From Candidatus Kaiserbacteria bacterium (GTDB lineage: Bacteria > Patescibacteriota > Minisyncoccia > Phycocordibacterales > UBA918): a stretch of DNA of 64,000 nt. The notes beneath the pieces were generated by a model. It worked only from the letters and a program-made list of their open reading frames with translations, was not told the DNA's origin and ran no database searches. This document shows positions 5,660-64,000 of this stretch, in pieces (position 1 is the stretch's first letter; each line of letters begins with the position of its first letter). Both the position numbers and the translations under genes were made by a program. The stretch lies in the NCBI GenBank assembly GCA_016204695.1, contig JACQKD010000001.1:4976-68975 (forward strand), in the 5' to 3' direction.

Positions 5660-6343
5660 ATGCTCACGCCTTCCGTCATACCCGCAATCATTCCGCAGTC
5701 ACTTGCGCATCTTCGAGCATGCATCGGCCGGCTTGCGGGGGCGGCGCGCGAGATACAGATAGACATTGTCGACGGGATATTCGTTCCGGAAAAAAGCTGG
5801 CCGTATCTCGACGGAGATCGAGATGCGAATATCGCAGAACTTGCCGCCGCCGTGCCGGAAGATCTTTCGTACGAACTTGACCTCATGGTCGCGGGTCAAT
5901 CGCTTGATCTCTCCTCCTGGCTTGCGCAAAACCCAGGACAGGTCGTATTGCATGTCGAGAGTTTTTCAGATGATGCCGGTCTTGCGCAGGCAATCACCGA
6001 GACGCACATGTACGGCCGGATGGTCGCGCTTGCGCTCAACAATGACACACCGCTTGAACGGCTCGCGCCTCACTTGCTCGACATTGACGGTGTGCAATGC
6101 ATGGGTATCGCCGAGATCGGCGCGCAGGGGCGGTCGTTTGACGAACGCGTGCTCAATCGCATTCGGGAAATACGCTCGAAGTATCCCGAGCTGTCTATCG
6201 GCGTGGACGGCAGTGTGAATGAAGAAACAATCATGCGGTTAAAGGAGGCCGGCGCAAATCGCTTTGTCGTCGGCTCCGCGGTCTTCGATACTCCCGATCC
6301 GGCCCAAGCGTACGACGCACTCTCCAAGCTTGTCGCTCTATGA
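5660..6343 (+). CDS. rpe: Ribulose-phosphate 3-epimerase.
   Basis: IDIVDGIFVP ... IGVDGSVNEETI...GANRFVVGSAVF matches the RPE (TIM barrel) family. Confidence 0.85.
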   Translation: MLTPSVIPAIIPQSLAHLRACIGRLAGAAREIQIDIVDGIFVPEKSWPYLDGDRDANIAELAAAVPEDLSYELDLMVAGQSLDLSSWLAQNPGQVVLHVESFSDDAGLAQAITETHMYGRMVALALNNDTPLERLAPHLLDIDGVQCMGIAEIGAQGRSFDERVLNRIREIRSKYPELSIGVDGSVNEETIMRLKEAGANRFVVGSAVFDTPDPAQAYDALSKLVAL

Positions 6344-8329: not shown

Positions 8330-9313
8330 ATGCCCGCGGAACACCTCAACAAAAAACTCTTTGACGAAGACATTGAGCGCGTACCCAATCGCGACGGTTT
8401 CGGCGAGGGCTTGCGCGAGGCGGGCGAGCGCGACAAACAAGTGGTCGCGCTCTGCGGCGACCTCACCGAGTCCACGCGGATGAGTATTTTTGCCGAGCAG
8501 TTTCCCGAGCGGTTCGTGCAGGTCGGCGTCGCCGAGCAATCGATGGCGTCGGTCGCTTCCGGCATGGCGGCGATGGGAAAGGTGCCGTTTATGGCTTCAT
8601 ACGCGATGTTTTCACCGGGACGCAATTGGGAGCAGATTCGCACGACGATTGCATACAACAACACGAACGTGAAAATAATCGGCTCGCATGCGGGTGTCTC
8701 CGTCGGTCCCGACGGCGCGACGCACCAGGCGATCGAAGACATCGCGCTTACGCGCGTCATGCCGAACATGACGGTGGTGGTGCCGTGCGACTCGATTGAG
8801 GCGAAGAAGGCGACGCTTGCGGCCGCAAGCCACATCGGTCCGCTCTACATCCGCCTCGCCCGCGAAAAGACCCCGGTCGTCACGACTGCCGACTCCCCTT
8901 TTGTTGTCGGGAAAGCGGAGGTGTATCTTTCTCCCGAAGGAAAAGAGAAAAAGATTGGAATCATCGCGTGCGGGACGATACTTCATAATGCGTTGCTCGC
9001 GGGCAAACGACTCAATGATGAAGGTATCGGCACGTCGGTGATGAACCTCGCGACCATCAAACCGCTCGATGAAGAAGCAGTACTTGCGTACGCGAAAGAA
9101 CACGAGGTTATTGTGACCGTCGAAGAACACCAAATCGCCGGAGGCATGGGTTCCGCCGTTGCCGAACTGCTCTCGGAAAAACATCCCCTGCGCGTCGTGC
9201 GTATCGGAGTCCGCGACCAATTCGGCCAGTCCGGCGAACCGGACGAACTGCTCAAACACTACGGCATCGATGTTGACAGCCTCTATGAGGCCGCAAAGAA
9301 TCGTGCAGTATAG
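8330..9313 (+). CDS. Transketolase, C-terminal (pyrimidine-binding/C-terminal) subunit.
   Basis: FPERFVQVGVAEQSMASVASGMA...IGSHAGVSVGPDGATHQAIEDIA is typical of the transketolase central/C-terminal domains. Confidence 0.9.
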   Translation: MPAEHLNKKLFDEDIERVPNRDGFGEGLREAGERDKQVVALCGDLTESTRMSIFAEQFPERFVQVGVAEQSMASVASGMAAMGKVPFMASYAMFSPGRNWEQIRTTIAYNNTNVKIIGSHAGVSVGPDGATHQAIEDIALTRVMPNMTVVVPCDSIEAKKATLAAASHIGPLYIRLAREKTPVVTTADSPFVVGKAEVYLSPEGKEKKIGIIACGTILHNALLAGKRLNDEGIGTSVMNLATIKPLDEEAVLAYAKEHEVIVTVEEHQIAGGMGSAVAELLSEKHPLRVVRIGVRDQFGQSGEPDELLKHYGIDVDSLYEAAKNRAV

Positions 9314-9323
9314 TTATAGAAAC

Positions 9324-9836
9324 ATGAACATGCAATCCGGAAATAGAGGACGCGGCTTCACCCTGATCGAACTCCTCGTCGTTATCGCCATCATCGGGCT
9401 CCTTGCGAGTGTCGTGATGGCGAATTTGAATAGTGCGCGGGCGAAAGCGAGAAATGTCCGGAGACAGGCCGACCTCAGTCAGATACAACGCGCACTTGAG
9501 TTTTATTACGATACGAATGGGCGATATCCTGCCTATGACGGAAGCCAGAGTGGCCTTCCGAATTGTGGCGGTTGGGCGCTAAACCATCCTTCGTACATGA
9601 CTTGCTGGAACGATTTGCAGGCGCGTCTTGCCCCGTATCTCTCCCAGTTGCCGGTCGATCCGACTCCAACCAACACACCGTATCACTATACTGCCAACTG
9701 GTGGTATAACGGCTCGGGATATGTTGCGTTCCAGGGCGGCGTCGGCCAAGGATTTGCATTACTCGCTTACCCTGAACCGGGTCTGGGATTCGGCATGGGA
9801 TGCTGGCCGGGATATTACACCGTATGTGTGAAGTAA
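9324..9836 (+). CDS. Type IV pilin (prepilin N-terminal cleavage/methylation domain).
   Basis: MNMQSGNRGRG|FTLIELLVVIAIIGLLASVVMANLNSARAKARNVRRQADLSQIQRALEFYYDTNGRYP shows the class III signal with Phe+1 and Glu+5. TATAGT -10 lies 9 nt before the ATG. Confidence 0.85.
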   Translation: MNMQSGNRGRGFTLIELLVVIAIIGLLASVVMANLNSARAKARNVRRQADLSQIQRALEFYYDTNGRYPAYDGSQSGLPNCGGWALNHPSYMTCWNDLQARLAPYLSQLPVDPTPTNTPYHYTANWWYNGSGYVAFQGGVGQGFALLAYPEPGLGFGMGCWPGYYTVCVK

Positions 9837-11912: not shown

Positions 11913-12437
11913 ATGAAATATTTTTCCGGCAGAGGAATCAACGTGAAGCCGCACAGCGGCTTCACGTTGATTGAGCTCCTCGTCGTCATCGCCATCATCG
12001 GTCTTCTGGCGAGCGTAGTGATGGCGAATTTGAACAGTGCGCGGGCGAAGGCACGGGATGCGCGGCGGCGCGCGGACATGAAAGAGCTGTATAAAGCGCT
12101 TGAACTTTACTACGATACCAATGGCGCATACCCATCAACAGGGAACGCGTGGATAGGCAATTGTGCATCGTACGGAAGTTATGGCACGTCAGGAGCAAGC
12201 GGATATATCCCGAACTTGGCACCGACCTATATACCGACGCTTCCACTTGATCCAAAATACAACGGTTCCAGCGGTTGCTATCTCTACAACTCTAATGGCG
12301 TCGAGTATAAATTACTTGCCCATTATACTGTCGAAAGTATCTGTCCGGTGCCGTCATCTGATGCGTTCTGGGATCCGGTGCGAAATGGTCAGTGTACATT
12401 CCAAATCTCGACCTCAGGCGCGCGTTCAACGTACTGA
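11913..12437 (+). CDS. Type IV pilin (second paralog).
   Basis: G|FTLIELLVVIAIIGLLASVVMANLNSARAKARDARRRADMKELYKALELYYDTNGAYP. The N-terminal 33 aa are identical to the pilin at 9324, with about 100 bp of nucleotide similarity. Confidence 0.85.
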   Translation: MKYFSGRGINVKPHSGFTLIELLVVIAIIGLLASVVMANLNSARAKARDARRRADMKELYKALELYYDTNGAYPSTGNAWIGNCASYGSYGTSGASGYIPNLAPTYIPTLPLDPKYNGSSGCYLYNSNGVEYKLLAHYTVESICPVPSSDAFWDPVRNGQCTFQISTSGARSTY

Positions 12438-43191: not shown

Positions 43192-45504
43192 ATGTATTTG
43201 CAGTCGCTTGAGGTAAGCGGGTTTAAGTCTTTTGCAAAAAAAGCGGAGCTTGAGTTTTCGACGCCAATTACGGGGATCGTGGGGCCCAACGGCTCCGGCA
43301 AGTCGAACGTCGTCGAGGCGTTTCGTTTCGTGCTCGGCGAACAGTCCATTAAGTCCATGCGCGGCAAGAAGGGAGAAGACCTCATTTGGGGCGGCGGAAC
43401 GAGCCTGGCGCGGGCAAACCGCGCGTCGGTGAAAATCGTGCTCAACAATGAAAGCCGCCTCTTCCCGATTGATTTCGACACTGTGACCGTCGAGCGCGTG
43501 GTCAACCGCGACGGCGAAAACGAATACTCCATCAATGGCTCGCGCACGCGCTTGCGTGACGTGCAGGAATTGCTTTCCGCCGCCAATATCGGCTCGACCG
43601 GCCACCACATCATTTCGCAAGGTGAAGCAGACCGCATCCTCTCGGCAAATCCGAAAGAACGCCGCGAGATGATCGAGGACGCGTTAGGTCTGAAGCTCTA
43701 TCAATACAAAAAAGCCGAGAGCGAGAAGAAACTCGAAAAGACGAAAGAAAATATCGCGCAGGTCACTTCGCTCCGCAAGGAGATCCAGCCGCATCTCCAC
43801 TTCCTTGAGCGGCAGGTGAAAAAGCTCGAAAAGTCTACGGAGCTTCGCGACCGGCTCACGGCGTTTTATAAAGCATACCTCCTGCGCGAGGAGCTCTATC
43901 TTGAACATCACACAAAGCGTTTGCGGGAAGAGGAGCGGGCGCCCGAGGCGGAGCTCGCGGTGCTGAAACACGAGCTCGCAAAAGCGAAACAGACGCTCGC
44001 CGAGGCCGAAAAGGATGAGAAGCGCGACGCGCTCGTGCGGCTTGAAGCACAGCTTTCGGTGCTTCGCCATAAACGGCAGGAGGTACTGCGTGAGAGCGGC
44101 CGCGTCGAGGGACAGCTTGGGTATCTTGAGCGGCAGGCGGCCGACCACGCGCGCAAAAAAGAACGCGAAACGCATCCGCCCGTGCCGTTTGCCGAGGTGA
44201 CGCGGGTGGTGGACCAGGTCGAGCAAGTCGCACAGAGCGCGCACGGGGAGGAAGACACGGCGGGATTGCGGCGCGTGATTGAGAGCATGGTGCGCACATT
44301 GCGGTCATTTCTCAATGAGACCGCGCGCATACACACGGACACTCCGGAGGAGACGCGCCTTGAGCGGGAGCTCGGCAAGCTCCGCGAAGAGAAGGAGCAC
44401 AATGAACGTACGCTTGCGGCGATTGACGGAGAAGAGCAGTCGCTTTCCCGTGAGTACGAGACGCTGAAACGGTCTATTGAAGCCGAGGCGAGCGAGAGCC
44501 GTGCCGCCGAGCGGGAAGTCTTTCGCATCATGGGGCGCGAGCGCGAGCTGATTGAGATAAAGAACCGCGTTACCCGCGAGACGCAGATGCTCGAACGCGA
44601 TCGGGAAGAATTCACCCGCGAGCTCAAAGAAGGCGCGATACTCGTCGGGTTTGAGATTACCCGCTACCGCGAGCACACCGTCGACCCGGACGGCATGTCG
44701 CTTACCGCGGTTGTTGTTGTCGATGAAGATCGTTCCGTACAGCTCGGCCGCCGCCGCGAGCTTGAGAAAATGAAGATTCGTCTCGAAGAGCTCGGCGCGA
44801 GCGGCGGCGGTGAAGTGATGAAAGAGTATGAGGAGGTCAAAGGCCGCGAAGCATTTCTTTCTCGCGAGATTGCCGACCTTGAACAATCAATCGAGAAGCT
44901 CGCGGAGCTGATTGTTGACTTGACCGAAAAATTAAACGAAGAATTTGTCGGCGGCATCGAGAAAATCAATACCGAGTTCAACCGCTTTTTCATGCTGATG
45001 TTCGGCGGCGGCTCGGCAAATCTTTTGCGCATCAAGCCAAAGGTGCGCAGGAAGAAGAGCGACCTTGAAGGACTACTTGCCGGCGATGGCGAGGGGGGCG
45101 ACCTGCCGGACGACGGAGGCGAAGATGAGGATTCGTCGGTTGACGGAGAAGAAGGTGTCGACATAGATGTGAAGCTCCCGAACAAGCGCGTGCGGGGCTT
45201 GGAAATGCTCTCCGGCGGCGAGCGGGCGCTGACCTCTATCGCGCTCATTTTTGCGATGAGTCAGGTCAATCCGCCGCTCTTTGTCATTCTTGACGAGACC
45301 GACGCCGCGCTCGACGAAGCCAACAGCCGGCGCTACGGCGACATGATCGAGTCGCTTGCGAAGAAGTCCCAGCTCATTTTGATAACTCACAATCGCGAAA
45401 CCATGTCCCGCGCCGGCGTCCTCTACGGCGTCACCATGGGCGGCGACGGCATTTCCAAACTCCTCTCCGTCAAACTCGAAGAAGCCGTCGCCGTGGCGAA
45501 GTGA
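43192..45504 (+). CDS. smc: SMC-family chromosome segregation ATPase (short, 770 aa).
   Basis: Walker A GPNGSGKSN. C-terminal signature LSGGERALTSIALIFAM and Walker B/D-loop ILDETDAALD. Long coiled-coil middle. The position after rnc is canonical. Extended -10 TGATACAAT lies 6 nt before the ATG. Confidence 0.85.
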   Translation: MYLQSLEVSGFKSFAKKAELEFSTPITGIVGPNGSGKSNVVEAFRFVLGEQSIKSMRGKKGEDLIWGGGTSLARANRASVKIVLNNESRLFPIDFDTVTVERVVNRDGENEYSINGSRTRLRDVQELLSAANIGSTGHHIISQGEADRILSANPKERREMIEDALGLKLYQYKKAESEKKLEKTKENIAQVTSLRKEIQPHLHFLERQVKKLEKSTELRDRLTAFYKAYLLREELYLEHHTKRLREEERAPEAELAVLKHELAKAKQTLAEAEKDEKRDALVRLEAQLSVLRHKRQEVLRESGRVEGQLGYLERQAADHARKKERETHPPVPFAEVTRVVDQVEQVAQSAHGEEDTAGLRRVIESMVRTLRSFLNETARIHTDTPEETRLERELGKLREEKEHNERTLAAIDGEEQSLSREYETLKRSIEAEASESRAAEREVFRIMGRERELIEIKNRVTRETQMLERDREEFTRELKEGAILVGFEITRYREHTVDPDGMSLTAVVVVDEDRSVQLGRRRELEKMKIRLEELGASGGGEVMKEYEEVKGREAFLSREIADLEQSIEKLAELIVDLTEKLNEEFVGGIEKINTEFNRFFMLMFGGGSANLLRIKPKVRRKKSDLEGLLAGDGEGGDLPDDGGEDEDSSVDGEEGVDIDVKLPNKRVRGLEMLSGGERALTSIALIFAMSQVNPPLFVILDETDAALDEANSRRYGDMIESLAKKSQLILITHNRETMSRAGVLYGVTMGGDGISKLLSVKLEEAVAVAK

Positions 45505-45567: not shown

Positions 45568-45744
45568 CATGACAAACTGCAAAAAATGCGGCAAGGAAAC
45601 CAAGGGATTCAAGTGCGATGTCGATACGTGCGGCATGGAAGCGGAACAGCATGATGCTAATCATGCATGCGGAGGCGAGCACTGCGTGCCGAAGTGTTCT
45701 GCGTGCAATGAAGCGGAAACAAAGTGCACCTGCTCCGCAGAATA
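45568..45744 (+). CDS. Candidate Cys-rich micro-protein (58 aa, 10 Cys, zinc-ribbon/metal-binding-like). Not in the supplied ORF track because it is shorter than 60 aa.
   Basis: MTNCKKCGKETKGFKCDVDTCGMEAEQHDANHACGGEHCVPKCSACNEAETKCTCSAE, with spacing CxxC...CxxxxC...CxxxHC...CxxC...CxC. Lies between the two copies of the smc 3' end. Confidence 0.3.
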
Positions 45745-45795
45745 GGTCGCGGCATCTCATCGCCGTGTCAATGTATCTGAAATACGACCGCGGGA

Positions 45796-45852
45796 GCGGT
45801 CGCATTTCTTTGTCCCTCTCCGTCAAACTCGAAGAAGTTGTTGCGGTGGCGA
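45796..45852 (+). repeat. Direct duplicate of the smc 3' end, located about 300 bp downstream of the real smc stop.
   Basis: 45447-45504 (ggcatttccaaactcctctccgtcaaactcgaagaagccgtcgccgtggcgaag tga) versus 45796-45852 (cgcatttctttgtccctctccgtcaaactcgaagaagttgttgcggtggcgaaa cag). The second copy lacks the stop codon. Confidence 0.8.
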
Positions 45853-45866
45853 AACAGGGCTCAAGT

Positions 45867-54700: not shown

Positions 54701-55011
54701 TCATCACCCAACAGCCGCTCGGCGGCAAGGCGCAGATCGGCGGCCAGCGCTTCGGTGAAATGGAGGTGTGGGCTCTGCTCGGCTACGGCGCGGCCTACAC
54801 GCTTCGGGAGATGCTCACGATCAAATCCGACGATATCGTCGGCCGCTCGGCGGCGTTTGACGCCATCGTGCGCGGCGAACGCATCAGTCATCCGCATACC
54901 CCGGCGTCGTTTAACGTCATGATCAACCAGCTTCGCGGTCTTTCGCTTGATGTCGAACTTGCGCGGGATGACGACCGACAACGTGTCGAACCGAGTGATC
55001 GGGACAAGTAA
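51787..55011 (+). CDS. rpoB: DNA-directed RNA polymerase subunit beta.
   Basis: Full-length rpoB signatures, including the GDKLAGRHGNKGVISRI and ...NLGQILELHLG... motifs. 1074 aa. Confidence 0.97.
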   Translation: MAVKTSHIVKQAALPKKYFKRYRAPRVALPDLIEPQRESFKWLAEVGLKEVFKEFSPISDYSGKKFELHFKKYTIGTPKCTPEYAKENKLTYDAPLRATVTLTNKTFGGEKEQEIFLADIPLMTEHGTFIINGVERVIVPQLARSYGIFFTAAETKGKTYFGAKVIPLRGAWIEIESEADDVIYVKIDRKRKFPVTSLLRVLGAETDAQILALFKDVPHGKEYLTETLKKDPAKTTDDAYVEIYKRLRDGDLATVENAREFVKSIFSEERYDLSEIGRYHFNHRFGLPITPKDASHRGVYLDDFVVILKHVIEQNQVPEAQPDDIDHLGFRRVRYFGEMIVQRVRVGMTRMKRNIQDRMSTIESETSLPIQLINPRPLQAAIKEFYTTNQLAQFMQQQNVLAELEGLRTLSALGPGGLTRERAGFDVRDVHPSHYGRLCPIHTPEGPNIGLIVRLSMYARVNRFGIIETPYAKVGKGVVTDEIVFLNAHEEEQHTIAHAATELDENSKIIASVVEVRRNGEPYVAPRDEVDFMDIATNQAFSVATSMIPFLNHDDANRALMGSNMQKQAVPCLVQEVPIVATGIEELAARDTGRIIAAHEAGEVTAVDAKHIVVKNKAGKSETYPLTVFQRTNDFSAFYHRPTVSLGQTVKRGDILADTSSTEHGQIALGQNALVAFMSWSGANYEDAIIISERLVKDSKFSSIHMDELEVSVRDTKLGPEVTTSDIPNVSDQKLRNLDENGIIRVGAEVRPGDILVGKVTPKGETQLTPEERLLRSIFGEKAKDVKDTSLRLEAGKRGRIVGVKVFSREQGDQLESGVIKRIHITIAQVRNVSVGDKLAGRHGNKGVISRILPEEDMPYTEDGRPIDVILTPLGVPSRMNLGQILELHLGMAAHTLGYQAIVPPFAGATEEEIKEELVKAGLPEDGKLWLRDGRTGETFAQKIAVGYMYILKLHHMVEDKIHMRSIGPYSLITQQPLGGKAQIGGQRFGEMEVWALLGYGAAYTLREMLTIKSDDIVGRSAAFDAIVRGERISHPHTPASFNVMINQLRGLSLDVELARDDDRQRVEPSDRDK

Positions 55012-58676: not shown

Positions 58677-58892
58677 TGCGGTGGCAATCAGGAGCCGATC
58701 AGTTGCCTTGTCCGAGACAAGAGTGCTACGACGTCAAGAAAACAATGTCGGCTCCGCGACGAAAAACTCAAAACTCGCTTTGCTCAAACAGTTGAGTTTT
58801 TCTGCTCCGCCTTGTTGTTTTCTAGTCGTCTTCGCAATTGTCTCTTCAAGGCAACTGATCGGCTCTTCTGCCCGCGGGATTATAATTACCTC

Positions 58893-60647
58893 ATGAGCAC
58901 TCCCGTCGAACAAATCAAAGAACGGCTCGACATCGTGGAGGTGATCGGCGGATATGTGCAGTTGCAGAAAGCCGGTCGTCATTTCAAGGGCAAGTCGCCC
59001 TTCACGAACGAGAAAACGCCTTCCTTTTTCGTCTCGCAGGAGCGCGGCATGTATTACTGTTTTTCTTCCGGCAAAGGGGGGGACATGTTCACGTTTATTC
59101 AGGAAATGGAAGGGGTGGACTTCCGGGGCGCGCTCAAGATCCTCGCCGAGCGGGCGCATGTTGATCTTGTTCCGCAGGATCCGAAAAAACGCAACGAAGA
59201 AGAGACGCTCTATGCTTTGCTTGACGCCGCCACGTCGTACTTTGAAACGTCTCTCAAAGAACACGAAAAGATCCGCGCGTATCTACGCAAGCGCGGGGTG
59301 AGCGATGCGTCCATCGCGAAATGGCGGATCGGATACGCGCCGGACGGGTGGCGCAATCTCAAGGATCATCTGTCCGGGCGGGGTTTCACCGACGCCATGA
59401 TGCTTCGATCGGGTCTCACCAAGCGGCAGGCCGAAGGAGGCAACTCGCTCTACGACGTATTCCGCGACCGCGTGATGTTTCCCATTGCCGATCCGGCAGG
59501 ACGCATCGTCGCGTTTTCCGGCCGCGCGATGTCCGCCGATCCTGCGCTTCCGAAGTATGTCAACTCCCCGGAGACGGAATTGTATGAAAAGTCTCGCATT
59601 CTCTTCGGCTACCATATCGCCAAGCGCAGTATCCGCCAGAGCAATTTCTCGCTCATCGTCGAAGGGCAGTTTGATCTCGTCCTTTCGCATCAAGCGGGAT
59701 TCAGTAACACGGTTGCGCTCTCCGGCACGGCGCTCTCACTGCATCACACCGCGCTCTTGGAGCGGCTGTCGTCTCGCGTCGTACTCGCGCTCGACGCCGA
59801 CCGGGCGGGGATCAATTCCGTTCGCCGCTCGGCGGAGATCATGCTTGCTCGCGGCATGGACGTGAAAGTGGCCGTACTGCCGATGGGTAAGGATCCCGCC
59901 GACATGGTTGCCGAGGATCCGGCTCTTCTCAAGGCCGCCATACGCGGCGCGGTCACCGTCGTTGAGTTTCTCATACGGATTTTGAAAGACAATACTCGAG
60001 ACGAACGCGCCTTTCGCCTGCGGGTGCGAGACGAAGTTCTGCCTCTTGTCGTGCGCATTCCGAGCAGTATCGATCGTGAACACTTCGAGCAAATAATCAG
60101 TGAAGCGCTATCGGTGACGCCTGATTCCGTACATGCGGAGGTGGAGCGGATCGCACAGATCGATCGGAATGCGCCGGCAAGCCGCACGAGATCGGAGGTC
60201 GGCACTCCGCCGTTACCGGCGGTCGTACGATCTAAAGAGCCGGAGGAATATCGAACGGACGAATTGATCCGGTTTCTCTACGGCATCATTATATGGCAGG
60301 AGACCGGCGACAAGACCGGTTTCGATGCCGCTGTGATATCTGCGGCATTGGAACAAGCGGTCGGGGAAACGATATGGAACCAACTGGTCGCTCTTGAGGA
60401 AAAAGATAAAAACAAACTTATCTTTGAGGCGGAAGTGTACGGAGCGGAACTTTCCCTGTCGGAGCTCCTTGAGCGGTCTCACGAATATCTCAAGGAGATA
60501 GAAGTCAGGATACTCAAGCACAGATTGACGGATGCCCGGGAAAAGCTCCGGCAGGCCGAATCAACGCGGGATGACGTACAGATGGCGGCGGCGCTTGAAG
60601 AATGCGCCTCGCTACAGAGGCGTTTGAGCGCGCTGGGAGACGCATAG
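58893..60647 (+). CDS. dnaG: DNA primase, with a degenerate zinc-binding domain.
   Basis: Primase N-terminus where the CHCC Zn ligands are mostly replaced ([16 protein letters not shown]...[12 protein letters not shown]). TOPRIM core ([25 protein letters not shown]...LALDADRAG). TATAAT lies 6 nt before the ATG. Confidence 0.9.
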
Positions 60648-60691
60648 AACAATTGGATTATCCGTTATTCTTCTGTATAGTGAACGGCAAT

Positions 60692-62062
60692 ATGGCAAAA
60701 ATTTCTAAAACAAAGTCGGTCAAAAAACGGGCGCCTGCCAAAAAGACGGCCAAGGCGAGGGGTGCCGGGGCGTCGAAAAAGCTCCGAAAGAAGTCGGGGC
60801 GGACTCCCAAGGTTGCCGGTAAGCGCACAGTATCGCTTCGGAAGAAGCCGTCGGCAAGAACGGCCAAAAGAGTCCGTGCCGGCAAAAAAGTCGTCCGGAA
60901 ATCGTCTCCCGTCAAAGGACGTGCTTCAAAAGGGACGAGTCAACAAAAACGTCCGGCAAAGCTCCGCCAGCTGGCGGATCGCAAGCGCGTATCGCCTGCG
61001 GATGAAGCGAAGGCGTTCGAACTGATCGAGAAGGGCCGCACTCGCGGATATGTCACCTACGATGAGATATTGAGGTCTTTCCCGACCATCGAAAATAATG
61101 TCGTTTTTCTCGAAGAACTCTATGAGCGGCTCGCAACCGCCAGTATCGACGTGCTTGAAAGCGGCGGCATGCTCGGCGAGGATATGGGGGAAGAATTGCT
61201 TGATCGCCGCAATATCTACCGCCGCAGTGACAGCGGGTATGATTCGATCCAGATGTATCTGCGCGAGATCGGACAGTACCCGCTCCTGAATGCCGCACAA
61301 GAGCGCGACTTCGCCAAGCGCATCGTCGACGGCGACACCGAGGCGCGCAATCTGCTCGCTCGCGCCAATCTCCGCCTTGTGGTGTCTATTGCGAAAAAAT
61401 ATGCCGGACGAAGTCCCGACTTGACCCTGCTCGATCTCATTCAAGAGGGCAATCTTGGGCTTTTTAAAGCAGTCGACAAGTTCGACTATACGAAGGGATA
61501 CAAGTTTTCAACATACGCGACATGGTGGATCCGTCAGGCGATCACGCGCGCGCTCGCCGACCAGTCGCGCACCATCCGCATTCCCGTGCACATGGTCGAG
61601 ACGATGGCTAAATACAAGCAAGTTTCACGCCGTCTCGCACAGGACCTCGGCCGTGACCCGATGCCGGAGGAGATCGCCACCGAAATGGGTATCGAAGTCG
61701 AAAAGGTCTACCAGATCGAAAAAATCAGCCAGGACACCATCTCGCTCGAACTTCCGATCGGAGATGACGACGACCGCTCCCGCCTCTCGGACTTTATCGC
61801 CGACGACAAGATTCTCGCGCCCGATCAAGAAGTCGCCCATCGCATCCTTGCCGACCAGGTGCAGGAGATTCTCGACACGCTCTCGGACAAAGAGCGCAAG
61901 ATTCTCGAAATGCGCCACGGACTCACCGACGGCATGTACCACACACTCGAAGAAGTGGGACAAGAGTTCGGCGTTACTCGCGAGCGCATCCGCCAGATCG
62001 AAGCCAAAGCTCTCGAAAAAATCCGCCTCCACGACAAAGCCCGCCGCCTGAAGTCGTATTAA
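60692..62062 (+). CDS. rpoD: RNA polymerase sigma-70 factor RpoD with a ~100-aa Lys/Arg-rich N-terminal region.
   Basis: Regions 1.2 to 4.2 are intact ([47 protein letters not shown], ...[21 protein letters not shown]). The N-terminus [24 protein letters not shown]... is strongly basic. Confidence 0.95.
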
Positions 62063-62135: not shown

Positions 62136-62164
62136 TTGACAGCATCGTGATAGAATGCTACAAT
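62136..62164 (+). promoter_or_regulatory. Consensus sigma70-type promoter (TTGACA-N17-TACAAT) with no plus-strand gene downstream. It points antisense to tRNA-Ser.
   Basis: ttgaca gcatcgtgatagaatgc tacaat. The spacer is itself an imperfect palindrome. Confidence 0.4.
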
Positions 62165-62190
62165 ACATAAAGTTTAGAGGGTCAAGTCTG

Positions 62191-62278
62191 TGCGGGGAAC
62201 GGGATTCGAACCCGTAAATAATCCGCCAGGATTTGTAGTTTTCAAGACTACTGCGTATTCCAGTTCCGCCATCCCCGC
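62191..62278 (-). tRNA. tRNA-Ser (anticodon TGA), type II with a long variable arm. CCA not encoded.
   Basis: Minus-strand GCGGGGA...TCCCCGC acceptor. Anticodon stem GTAGT/ACTAC with loop CTTGAAA. Variable arm AATCCTGGCGGATT. T-arm ACGGGTTCGAATCCCGT. 88 nt. Confidence 0.8.
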
Positions 62279-62311: not shown

Positions 62312-62671
62312 CTAAGAACCCCCTGCGTCGCTTGATGTGGGGGGTTCTGTTTGCGAAGCAGCACGGTATGCACCGCGTCCAATATTTACGACTTGATGGT
62401 TTGACCTAAGGTAAGAGAGAATGCCGCCAACTTTCTTCCGAGAAATCTCGGGTTGTATACGCCGCATGTGGTTAAGTACATCTTCCGCGGTTATACCCGT
62501 GGGCCCTGCATTTAGAATTACCTTTAAGACCTCTGAAGGATACGAAAAGCCCGGCGGTAATTTGATCTCTGCCTCTGGCGAGACAATTTCACGCAGACGA
62601 GCTTCAATTCGCTTCTTTTCTTCAAGAAGAGTTTCTATCTCCTTAAGCTTTTCGTCAGGTGACTTTGCCAT
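62312..62671 (-). CDS. Hypothetical protein with an N-terminal coiled coil and a C-terminal winged-helix-like region.
   Basis: TTGACA-N17-TAGCAT promoter, then 8 nt to the ATG on the minus strand. No family assignment. Confidence 0.45.
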   Translation of the reverse strand: MAKSPDEKLKEIETLLEEKKRIEARLREIVSPEAEIKLPPGFSYPSEVLKVILNAGPTGITAEDVLNHMRRIQPEISRKKVGGILSYLRSNHQVVNIGRGAYRAASQTEPPTSSDAGGS

Positions 62672-62807
62672 TACGACACATGCTAGCGTAGTTGGCCTAG
62701 TATGTCAAGTAAGTTTCCAAGAAAACCAATTTTGCCGACATCAAGGGGTTGTACTTTTATGATTCTTATGGTGCTTCTGTCGTTACTAATTTTGCTATAC
62801 TCCTGTG

Positions 62808-62954
62808 ATGGCCGAAAAGGAATCCCATAAAGAAGTACAAAAGGCCTTTGACGAGGCGTATGGGCGGCTGAATGAGGCGCAGAGGAAGGCGGTGGATATC
62901 ATCGAGGGGTGTAAGTCACGCCTCCTCTGGACATTTCATACAAAAAACGTATAA
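62808..62954 (+). pseudogene. Truncated duplicate of the 5' end of the uvrD/pcrA-like helicase gene (48 codons, then a stop). It carries a copy of the helicase promoter.
   Basis: 62786-62925 matches 63645-63780 (tgctatactc..gatggc.gaaaagg.....gaggcgtat...ctgaatgaggcgcagaggaaggcggtggata). The translation MAEKESHKEVQKAFDEAYGRLNEAQRKAVDIIEG parallels MAEKGIKQGSAGAFEEAYKHLNEAQRKAVDTVEG. Confidence 0.7.
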
Positions 62955-62963
62955 TATGAATAT

Positions 62964-63269
62964 ATGAAAACACAACTTACACGAGATAGGAAAGAGCCGA
63001 CACCTGTCGTCAAGCTCGGTGCGAGCGGGCAGATGGTGATTCCAAAGAAGCTCTCAACGGCGCTTGGCTTGAGAGGGGGGGATTACCTCAATGTTGAATT
63101 GTACCGAGGCAATCGTTTGTTGGTGACCCCAAAAGTACTCGTCGATCGGCATCCCGAAATTGACCGGCGTCTTGCCGAGGCGGAGGAGGATGTGCGCGCC
63201 GGACGCATGAGCGGGCCATTTGATACTATTGACGAACTCAAGCGACATCTCGACTCCGTGAAGCTATGA
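62964..63269 (+). CDS. AbrB/MazE/SpoVT-family antitoxin.
   Basis: VVKLGASGQMVIPKKLSTALGLRGGDYLNVELYRGNRLLVTP is a swapped-hairpin AbrB-type DNA-binding domain. TATAAT lies 8 nt before the ATG. Confidence 0.7.
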   Translation: MKTQLTRDRKEPTPVVKLGASGQMVIPKKLSTALGLRGGDYLNVELYRGNRLLVTPKVLVDRHPEIDRRLAEAEEDVRAGRMSGPFDTIDELKRHLDSVKL

Positions 63270-63508
63270 TGCGGACGCACGCGACCAGCCGCTTTGACCA
63301 CTCGTACGCCAAAGCACCGCGTGCCATCAAACAGGCATTCCTTAAGCAGGCGGCGTTTCTTGTCCGAGACATCCGTCACCCGTCGTTGCGGGCAAAAAGA
63401 TATGACAATATTCGCTGGCAAGCCCGCGTGACAAGAGATTGGCGTTTTTACTTTAGGATTGAGAAAGACATATATATTTTGCTCGATATCATCCGCCATC
63501 CGAAATAA
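63266..63508 (+). CDS. RelE/ParE-superfamily toxin, the partner of the AbrB-type antitoxin.
   Basis: Overlaps the antitoxin stop by 4 nt. ...KQAAFLVRDIRHPSLRAKRYDNIRWQARVTRDWRFYFRIEKDIYILLDIIRHPK fits the RelE fold consensus (..L......K.L.G....R.R.GDYR..Y.I......I..I.HR). Confidence 0.6.
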   Translation: MMRTHATSRFDHSYAKAPRAIKQAFLKQAAFLVRDIRHPSLRAKRYDNIRWQARVTRDWRFYFRIEKDIYILLDIIRHPK

Positions 63509-63660
63509 TCAATTATGAGAAAACGTCTGAAGGCAAAACATCATTCGTGTTCGCTTTGCAAGCCGCGTAAAACAGGCCGTTCCTGTCGTTGGTCCAATCG
63601 ACAATTGGAATATTTGCGTAATTGGGAGACAGAGAGGCGTACTCTGCTATACTCTGCTGA

Positions 63661-64000
63661 TGGCGGAAAAAGGAATCAAACAGGGGTCGGCGGGCGCATT
63701 CGAGGAGGCGTATAAACATCTTAACGAGGCGCAGAGGAAAGCCGTGGATACTGTGGAGGGACCGGTGATGGTGATTGCGGGGCCGGGGACGGGGAAGACG
63801 CAGATATTGGCGCTTCGGATCGCGAACATTTTGAAACGGACGGACGCCTCGCCTACCTCCATACTCGCGCTGACCTTCACCGAGTCCGGTGTCGCATCCA
63901 TGACTGCAAGGCTCGTATCGCTTATCGGCGAGGCGGGGTATCGCGTGCGCGTGCATACGTTCCATGGATTTTGCAATGAGATCATTCGGCTGTATCCGGA
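63661..64000 (+). CDS. UvrD/PcrA/Rep-family DNA helicase, 5' part. It continues beyond the window and is not in the supplied ORF track.
   Basis: LNEAQRKAVDTVEGPVMVIAGPGTGKTQILALRIANIL (Walker A, motif I) ... ILALTFTESGVASMTARL (motif Ia) ... TFHGFCNEIIR (motif II region). Extended -10 TGCTATACT lies 5 nt before the ATG. Confidence 0.8.

Follow-up and report, generated by a model that had tools for sequence, protein, structure and literature searches.

The window considered here is a stretch of 64,000 nucleotides of Candidatus Kaiserbacteria DNA in which a predicted toxin-antitoxin (TA) cassette lies between two copies of the promoter and first codons of a gene for a UvrD/PcrA-like helicase. 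Read along the plus strand, the first of these (copy A, 62793..62908) comprises the extended -10 element TGCTATACT, a spacer of 6 nt, an ATG at 62808 and the remainder of codons 1–34, all stranded from any intact gene. It opens a dead-end open reading frame (ORF) of 48 codons (62808..62954), made up of the 34 helicase codons, 14 unrelated codons and a TAA, which is annotated as a gene for a 48-aa protein in the metagenomic contig L001 (related loci are likewise referred to by L numbers). The junction and left arm of the cassette follow (62909..62963), and then three small genes in the same orientation: an antitoxin of the AbrB/SpoVT/MazE type (62964..63269), a toxin of the RelE/ParE superfamily (63266..63508) and a 66-codon ORF for a small Lys/Arg-rich protein with a CxxC motif (63515..63715). 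The second copy of the helicase promoter (GAGACA-16-TATACT with TG) and codons 1–34 (copy B, 63645..63760) is contiguous with the intact gene, which starts at 63660 on the plus strand and continues past the end of the window at 64000. The full helicase, found at L001:1682-4855, is a protein of 1057 aa with a C-terminal PD-(D/E)XK nuclease domain, and the stretch encoding its Walker A motif (63762..63820) is proposed below as a homologous anchor. An exact-sequence search with the helicase yielded a single Logan contig of 5.2 kb and neither strain variants nor additional genes downstream.

Two dissimilar copies of one gene end

The first-pass annotation of this DNA had reported that the helicase promoter and 5' end are present twice, with the TA pair between the copies, and this arrangement was borne out. 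The extent given there, some 140 bp at 62786-62925 and 63645-63780, was not; both a repeat search and pairwise alignment delimit an ungapped repeat of 116 bp (62793-62908 and 63645-63760, offset by 852 bp throughout) that opens with TGCTATACT and closes with GAGGG, and whose copies are identical at 77 of 116 positions (66%). Within it, identity is highest in blocks of 26 nt (85%) and 65 nt (75%). Its local alignment score of 67 compares with a maximum of 24 among shuffled sequences, and a tblastn comparison of the 48-aa ORF with the start of the helicase matched 21 of 34 residues (E = 8e-9). Differences between the copies fall at first, second and third codon positions in the proportion 8/9/20, and in both the extended -10 sits 6 nt ahead of the ATG. 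All orthologues of the helicase carry A/T-TTTGCTATACT-N6-ATG and begin to resemble one another shortly before the -10 box. On its left, therefore, the repeat ends at the boundary of a conserved gene, which is not a breakpoint. The possibility of an assembly artefact, which the first-pass annotation had itself raised, was also considered. In Logan, the assemblies of three further sequencing runs agree with the window at 100% identity; contig L001 covers both copies and contig L003 the junction of copy A with the cassette. Given three independent and identical assemblies, an artefact is very unlikely.

It was further observed that TGCTATACT occurs four times in the window (10872, 24218, 62793 and 63645; also 2892) against 0.1 expected, and that the pattern TGnTATAMT-N6-ATG occurs three times against 0.01 expected. 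This suggests that extended -10 elements and leaderless starts may be preferred in this genome.

Having diverged by 34%, the copies cannot represent a recent duplication. Their relationships to the helicase genes of other lineages were compared over a 63-nt block, codons 14–34, in which copy A is identical to L023 at 56/63 positions, to L027 at 57/63 and to L029 at 50/63, compared with 46/63, 46/63 and 38/63, respectively, for copy B; the two copies match each other at 47/63. The segment of copy A from the -10 box to ATGGC is, moreover, identical to the helicase promoter of L023, and copy A keeps an open frame with no signs of decay. An old pseudogene formed in situ should be the more aberrant of the two copies, yet copy A is the more typical, which argues that A and B are alleles of different lineages. 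The earlier proposal that the event could be dated by counting substitutions between the copies thus loses its basis: their identity is 66%, and copy A, over the best block, comes nearer to the helicases of other species (89–90%) than to its partner B (75%).

The cassette and its promoter

The identification of the cassette as an AbrB/RelE pair in the first-pass annotation was upheld by several lines of evidence. The antitoxin matches the domain models PF04014 (E = 2.5e-8; 34.2 bits, cut-off 24.7) and TIGR01439 (E = 9.7e-10; 38 bits, cut-off 28.3). The toxin of the window itself matched no Pfam or NCBIfam model, but a search returned 358 homologues of 79–81 aa, and among 25 such relatives ParE_like (PF24732) was recognized in 13 (best E = 2.5e-6) and ParE_toxin in four. 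Finally, an AlphaFold2 model of the toxin (mean predicted local distance difference test score, 92.5) gave YoeB, RelE, YafQ and ParE as its top Foldseek matches in the PDB, with TM-scores of 0.76–0.83 and E-values down to 6e-5. The two genes are co-oriented with the antitoxin first, the start of the toxin gene overlaps the stop of the antitoxin gene by 4 nt, and in nearly all of 80 metagenome loci a homologue of the antitoxin immediately precedes one of the toxin. The cassette is thus predicted, from domain matches and modelled fold, to encode a genuine AbrB/MazE-type antitoxin with a RelE/ParE-fold toxin. With type II TA systems of this kind it shares small overlapping genes, the antitoxin-first order, the AbrB-type domain, the RelE/YoeB/ParE fold and a promoter overlapping an AT-rich symmetric sequence. 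It differs in that the toxin of the window is recognized only through its relatives and its predicted fold, with TA activity likewise a prediction, and in that a third small gene is attached to the pair in the window and in L023.

The product of this third gene is 69% identical to that of L023 over 52 aa and belongs to a family of proteins of 43–66 aa with the consensus MRKRxKxKxHSCALCKPHKxG..RW..E..L..FERE, represented by 45 clusters and matching no Pfam model. The first ~45 codons of the ORF are conserved, and its tail runs through the promoter and start of copy B in another frame; over those ~45 codons conservation identifies it as a real, if predicted, gene. The gene (63515-63676), which overlaps the helicase promoter and start, is apparently unannotated and is uncalled in the Logan contigs. 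Across 111 loci it was linked to the TA family only in the window and in L023, and hence the cassettes of these two share a specific origin. The close toxin homologues of L110 and L111 have neither the small protein nor rpoD or helicase neighbours. The suggestion in the first-pass annotation that the TA pair may stabilize the accessory region beside it (62.1–62.7 kb) is speculative.

The 48-codon ORF does, as had been noted in the first-pass annotation, end in a TAA that is part of a TATAAT (62950-62955), with 8 nt between this hexamer and the start codon of the antitoxin gene at 62964. That hexamer forms part of a candidate promoter, TGGACA-16-TATAAT (62928-62955), which scored 11/12 in a promoter scan. 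The further claim that the truncated helicase copy supplies this promoter was not sustained. The TATAAT falls outside the duplicated segment, and the start region of the antitoxin gene, GTATAATATGAAnATATG, is conserved in L023 (GTATAATATGAATATATG in the window, GTATAATATGAAAATATG in L023), where no helicase fragment is present and the upstream neighbour is the stop codon of rpoD; a similar ATATATGAATATA precedes the antitoxin gene in L110. It is the last ~25 nt of the left arm of the cassette (62909-62963) that L023 conserves and L110 resembles; the first ~30 nt cannot be aligned to L023. With the TATAAT outside the repeat and the start region kept in L023 and L110, the promoter is assigned to the cassette, which would carry its own putative leaderless-type promoter into which the dead-end ORF merely runs. 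The promoter of copy A is nonetheless intact and co-oriented with the TA operon, and as no terminator-like site was seen between the two, it is plausible that copy A adds read-through transcription into the operon.

The rpoD–helicase islet and comparable loci

The cassette occupies an interval whose left flank is the conserved rpoD gene (60602..62062, plus strand; 486 aa), itself preceded by dnaG (58812-60647), the first gene of the window's last 4 kb. The rpoD ORF matches rpoD of L004–L006, L023, L027 and L029 at 75–96% aa identity. The gene order (rpoC-)dnaG-rpoD-[interval]-helicase-DsbA-like-BacA is kept in L023, L027, L028 and L029 within the reach of each contig, and L004, L005 and L006 share the dnaG-rpoD-interval-helicase core. 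The interval itself measures 1.5–3.2 kb and its gene content differs in every locus; on this comparison of gene content the region between rpoD and the helicase gene appears as a hypervariable islet in this clade of Ca. Kaiserbacteria. The lineages concerned are well separated. The helicase of L001 is annotated as that of a Ca. Kaiserbacteria, and its closest relatives are only 57–64% identical. L027 and L004–L006, which have a single helicase 5' end and no cassette, represent different species (58–66% aa identity).

In L023, the C-terminus of RpoD is 96% identical to that of the window and the helicase 62–65%, and this locus holds the same three-gene cassette (64, 70 and 69% aa identity) directly after rpoD and without a helicase repeat. 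The divergence of this cassette from that of the window equals that of the L023 helicase and DsbA-like genes, and its GC content at third codon positions (GC3) does not separate it from ORF181. What follows the cassette in L023 is a repetition of the rpoD 3' end, 48 nt in length (1256-1304), with a hairpin directly behind it. This duplicate is identical to the rpoD end of the window at 44 of 48 positions and only 84% identical to that of L023 itself, and the informative sites of the L023 rpoD 3' end form an L027-like run followed by a window-like one, too few in number to place a crossover. In L029, a decayed helicase promoter with ~25 codons and three small indels (6158-6244) was found 1826 nt upstream of the working start, where it provides the apparent start of a 578-aa ORF of the sigma70_r2-like type that precedes the working helicase. 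The best match of this fossil is the L023-type allele (score 53, against a null of 31); the allele of L029 itself scored 30. No such fossils were detected in L004–L006 or L027, the loci without stacked fillings. Stranded ends of the flanking core genes are thus present in three of seven lineages, from the helicase gene (5' end) in the window and L029 and from rpoD (3' end) in L023, and in the comparisons made each resembles the allele of another lineage more than it does its functional partner. A vestige of the rpoD stop region was also sought at the left junction of the window (62909-62950), as would be expected of a compact rpoD-cassette ancestor, and was rejected when the similarity proved to be no greater than that of shuffled sequences.

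The remainder of the islet in the window, termed block Y, consists of a tRNA-Ser(UGA) gene (62190..62278, minus strand), identified with ARAGORN and by an Rfam tRNA match of 57 bits, and ORF119 (62312..62671), an orphan gene of 119 aa in the same orientation. The two are apparently co-transcribed, and a promoter-like TTGACA-17-TAGCAT lies on the ORF119 side at 62708-62680. The GC content of block Y is 45% compared with 55.5% for the window, and the GC3 of ORF119 is 42% compared with 63–66% for core and neighbouring genes. ORF119 matched no Pfam or NCBIfam model, and a search of 5.8 billion proteins for a donor-type arrangement of ORF119 and helicase returned only ORF119 itself. An Rfam scan of 61.9–64 kb detected nothing besides the tRNA-Ser, the same interval contained no tRNA in six relatives, and no partial second copy of the tRNA-Ser gene, such as an att-like piece, was present in the window. 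Just past rpoD, on the plus strand at 62136-62164, there is also a strong promoter-like TTGACA-17-TACAAT with an upstream TG (11/12) that faces the 3' end of the minus-strand tRNA gene. At the other flank, the helicase of the window is ~40–50 aa longer than its orthologues owing to an acidic insertion (…RMRQKISHMRGAEEREHEAYTTYDEGSSDEGNKADEDFRMHSAEDDE…) at residues ~650–700 (L001 1682-4855), which precedes the conserved motif RRLLYVAMTRARK.

Comparable arrangements were found at several loci, as the first-pass annotation had anticipated in drawing a parallel with smc: they involve smc in the window, the rpoD 3' end in L023, the helicase 5' end in L029 and other members of the TA family. At smc, the terminal 52 nt of the gene (45449-45500) are found again with 81% identity 353 bp downstream (45802-45853), as a second copy from which the stop codon has been lost. 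Between the smc copies lie a promoter-like TTGACC-17-TATACT and a 58-aa Cys-rich ORF (45569-45745). In L066, L069 and L070 the gene upstream contributes a piece of 51–55 nt that appears again immediately past the toxin gene, that of L070 (3395-3445 and 4258-4308) being an internal piece of an upstream gene of 167 aa, and in L083 a 46-nt promoter-like segment, TTGACA...TACACT, is present on both sides (332-376 and 1867-1912). Flanking repeats with scores of at least 50 were counted in three independent cases, L023 included, among 61 TA loci, compared with one case among the 693 positions used as a control (Fisher p = 0.002); the repeat search did not recover the high-scoring control position near 49.9 kb. 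Two further repeats in the window were rejected as candidates for gene-end duplication. That at 54861 and 55298 is inside rpoB/rpoC, and that of 178 nt at 9352 and 11956 belongs to two paralogous pilin genes. These type IV pilin-like paralogues (9159-9836 and 11913-12437) share a 178-nt N-terminal region at 75% identity (GFTLIELLVVIAIIGLLASVVMANLNSARAKAR).

Origin of the stranded end

The similarity of copy A to the helicase gene ends at gene nt 102. The longest exact runs that this 3.2-kb gene shares between the window and L023, L029 and L027 are 44, 47 and 30 nt, respectively, and all lie within nt 103–161, the Walker A-coding stretch, beginning at gene nt 103–118. This stretch is a natural place for strand exchange between lineages so diverged, and a one-sided homologous event would be expected to leave its joint at the edge of the Walker A run. 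Copies A and B are probably, then, diverged alleles that were juxtaposed by one-sided recombination with a related lineage of Ca. Kaiserbacteria, in the manner of homology-facilitated illegitimate recombination (HFIR). Incoming DNA from the related lineage would have paired through a highly conserved stretch of the flank, and its non-pairing remainder would have been joined illegitimately at the edge of the pairing. Two islet fillings, block Y with its tRNA-Ser and orphan gene and the three-gene cassette, would thereby have become stacked, with the promoter and 34 codons of one lineage left stranded as copy A and copy B of the other driving the intact gene. No integrase or transposase ORF was found in the interval. 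A single crossover of the Campbell type, involving a circularized fragment, was discarded as a variant of this route; it would extend copy A into the Walker A block, and copy A stops before it.

The event may have run in either direction. The position of the junction favours entry of the cassette together with copy B, which would make copy A the resident remnant. Composition and the co-divergence of the cassette favour the converse, that block Y and copy A came in beside an old cassette; this is the direction to which the 45% GC of block Y, the 42% GC3 of ORF119 and its orphan status, and a cassette that has diverged in step with its flanks all point. This conflict between the signals, GC content and equal divergence of cassette and flanks on the one hand and the Walker A junction on the other, is one of several points that weigh against the HFIR-like origin. 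No genome representing a donor or an empty site is available above ~65% aa identity, and the crossover and illegitimate joint are deduced. The 89–90% identity of copy A and the 73% of copy B are each within ~2 standard deviations of the ~82% roughly expected of a native copy, and these block comparisons rest on 63 nt. Because the -10 element TGCTATACT recurs in this genome, the promoter part of the repeat is by itself weak evidence. Finally, the edge of the duplicate in L023 is not beside an identical run of comparable length.

A process known to leave this topology is the insertion of restriction-modification (RM) complexes with long target duplication (Nobusato et al., 2000, as described in Furuta et al., 2010; PMC2853133). 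Such inserts were defined as being shorter than 20 kb, flanked by direct repeats of more than 30 bp and devoid of mobility genes; the repeats often span start or stop codons and are 93–100% identical in the tables of that study (Furuta et al., 2010; PMC2853133). By analogy, the cassette could have inserted after codon 34 of the helicase gene and duplicated a 116-bp target in situ, the copies being identical at birth and copy A having drifted since. The locus resembles the RM cases in being a small "addictive" module without transposase or integrase (here a unit of 852 bp), in having repeats that at 116 bp exceed the length of transposon target duplications and span a start codon, and in leaving the target gene intact. 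In the RM cases related genomes have a single copy; here the loci with one helicase 5' end and no cassette, L027 and L004–L006, belong to different species, and L023 has the cassette without this repeat. Furthermore, the 8/9/20 distribution of differences over codon positions is also that expected from one selected and one neutral branch. However, the cargo here is a TA pair, and the repeats form a heterologous pair, 66% identical and at unequal distance from L023 and L027, in place of the near-identity of the published examples. A neutral copy at 34% divergence should be aberrant and bear indels, as the fossil of L029 does, whereas copy A is undecayed, has an open frame, matches L023 exactly from the -10 box to the ATG and is nearer to L023 and L027 (89–90%) than is copy B (73%). 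In situ target duplication is, on balance, regarded as improbable.

No greater weight attaches to a site-specific integrative element, or its remnant, that targeted gene ends, carried a replacement gene end and promoter and whose recombinase was lost or acts in trans. SXT/R391 behaves in this way at the prfC 5' end. As such an element would have it, the cassette of both the window and L023 is contiguous with the functional gene end, and repeats at the flanks are enriched around the TA family. Yet there is no recombinase gene in or beside the 852-bp unit and no core sequence common to the junctions, and L029 has a fossil of the same type with a different insert. Site-specific insertion, one of the mechanisms suggested in the first-pass annotation, is rendered unlikely by the border of the three-gene cassette in L023, where the duplicated gene end is another one, that of rpoD (3') in place of that of the helicase (5'), and this explanation too is regarded as improbable. 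An integron gene cassette was rejected: no significant inverted repeats flank the unit, there is no integrase, and the repeats are the ends of protein-coding genes. There remains a chimeric assembly of two co-occurring strains joined at their shared helicase 5' region, for which the strain-variable nature of the region and its origin in a metagenome-assembled genome might speak. With three independently assembled runs in full agreement, two contigs crossing the junction of copy A and the cassette, one contig spanning both copies and no sequence at 62908/62909 common to both sides at which a mis-joining could occur, the likelihood of such a chimera is vanishingly small.

The HFIR-like origin preferred here has its closest counterpart in the displacement events proposed to leave orphan gene ends at type VI secretion system (T6SS), Rhs and contact-dependent growth inhibition (CDI) loci (Kirchberger et al., 2017; PMC5361080), for which that study cites the earlier work on HFIR (de Vries and Wackernagel, 2002; Prudhomme et al., 2002; Meier and Wackernagel, 2003). 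Common to both are a conserved anchor, illegitimate joining of the remainder and a displaced end that is kept beside the new module, and in both the alleles of a single genome stem from different strains with no duplication having taken place. The present locus differs in that the displaced piece is the 5' end of a housekeeping helicase gene with its promoter (3' ends are involved in L023 and at smc), in that there is no variable tip of a polymorphic toxin, and in that the event is deduced from sequence comparison. The feature is, in short, a recombination scar of a known kind in a genome of the candidate phyla radiation (CPR), associated with a TA cassette and unusually clear in its heterology and recurrence.

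For the annotation of the locus, these findings mean that the 48-codon ORF is a remnant, that the TA pair has its own promoter and that a third small gene, so far unannotated, overlaps the helicase promoter. Their wider interest derives from the CPR setting, in which both mobile elements and experiments are scarce. If the HFIR-like origin is true, the stranded end would record an exchange of DNA between CPR lineages whose sampled members have ~65% protein identity, anchored on a few dozen identical bases of a conserved gene, and such fossils, three of them in one islet across seven lineages together with that at smc, could be counted as markers of gene flow by recombination among uncultivated, episymbiotic bacteria. 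A broader and speculative extension, which we consider rather unlikely, is that small CPR cassettes (TA pairs and genes for tiny Cys-rich or sigma-like proteins) spread by uptake without a recombinase, accompanied by a piece of a neighbouring gene, with stacking at gene boundaries and co-option of the fossil promoters. Were this recombinase-free route true, stranded gene ends would be a general signature, open to scoring, of gene flow by transformation between divergent CPR lineages.

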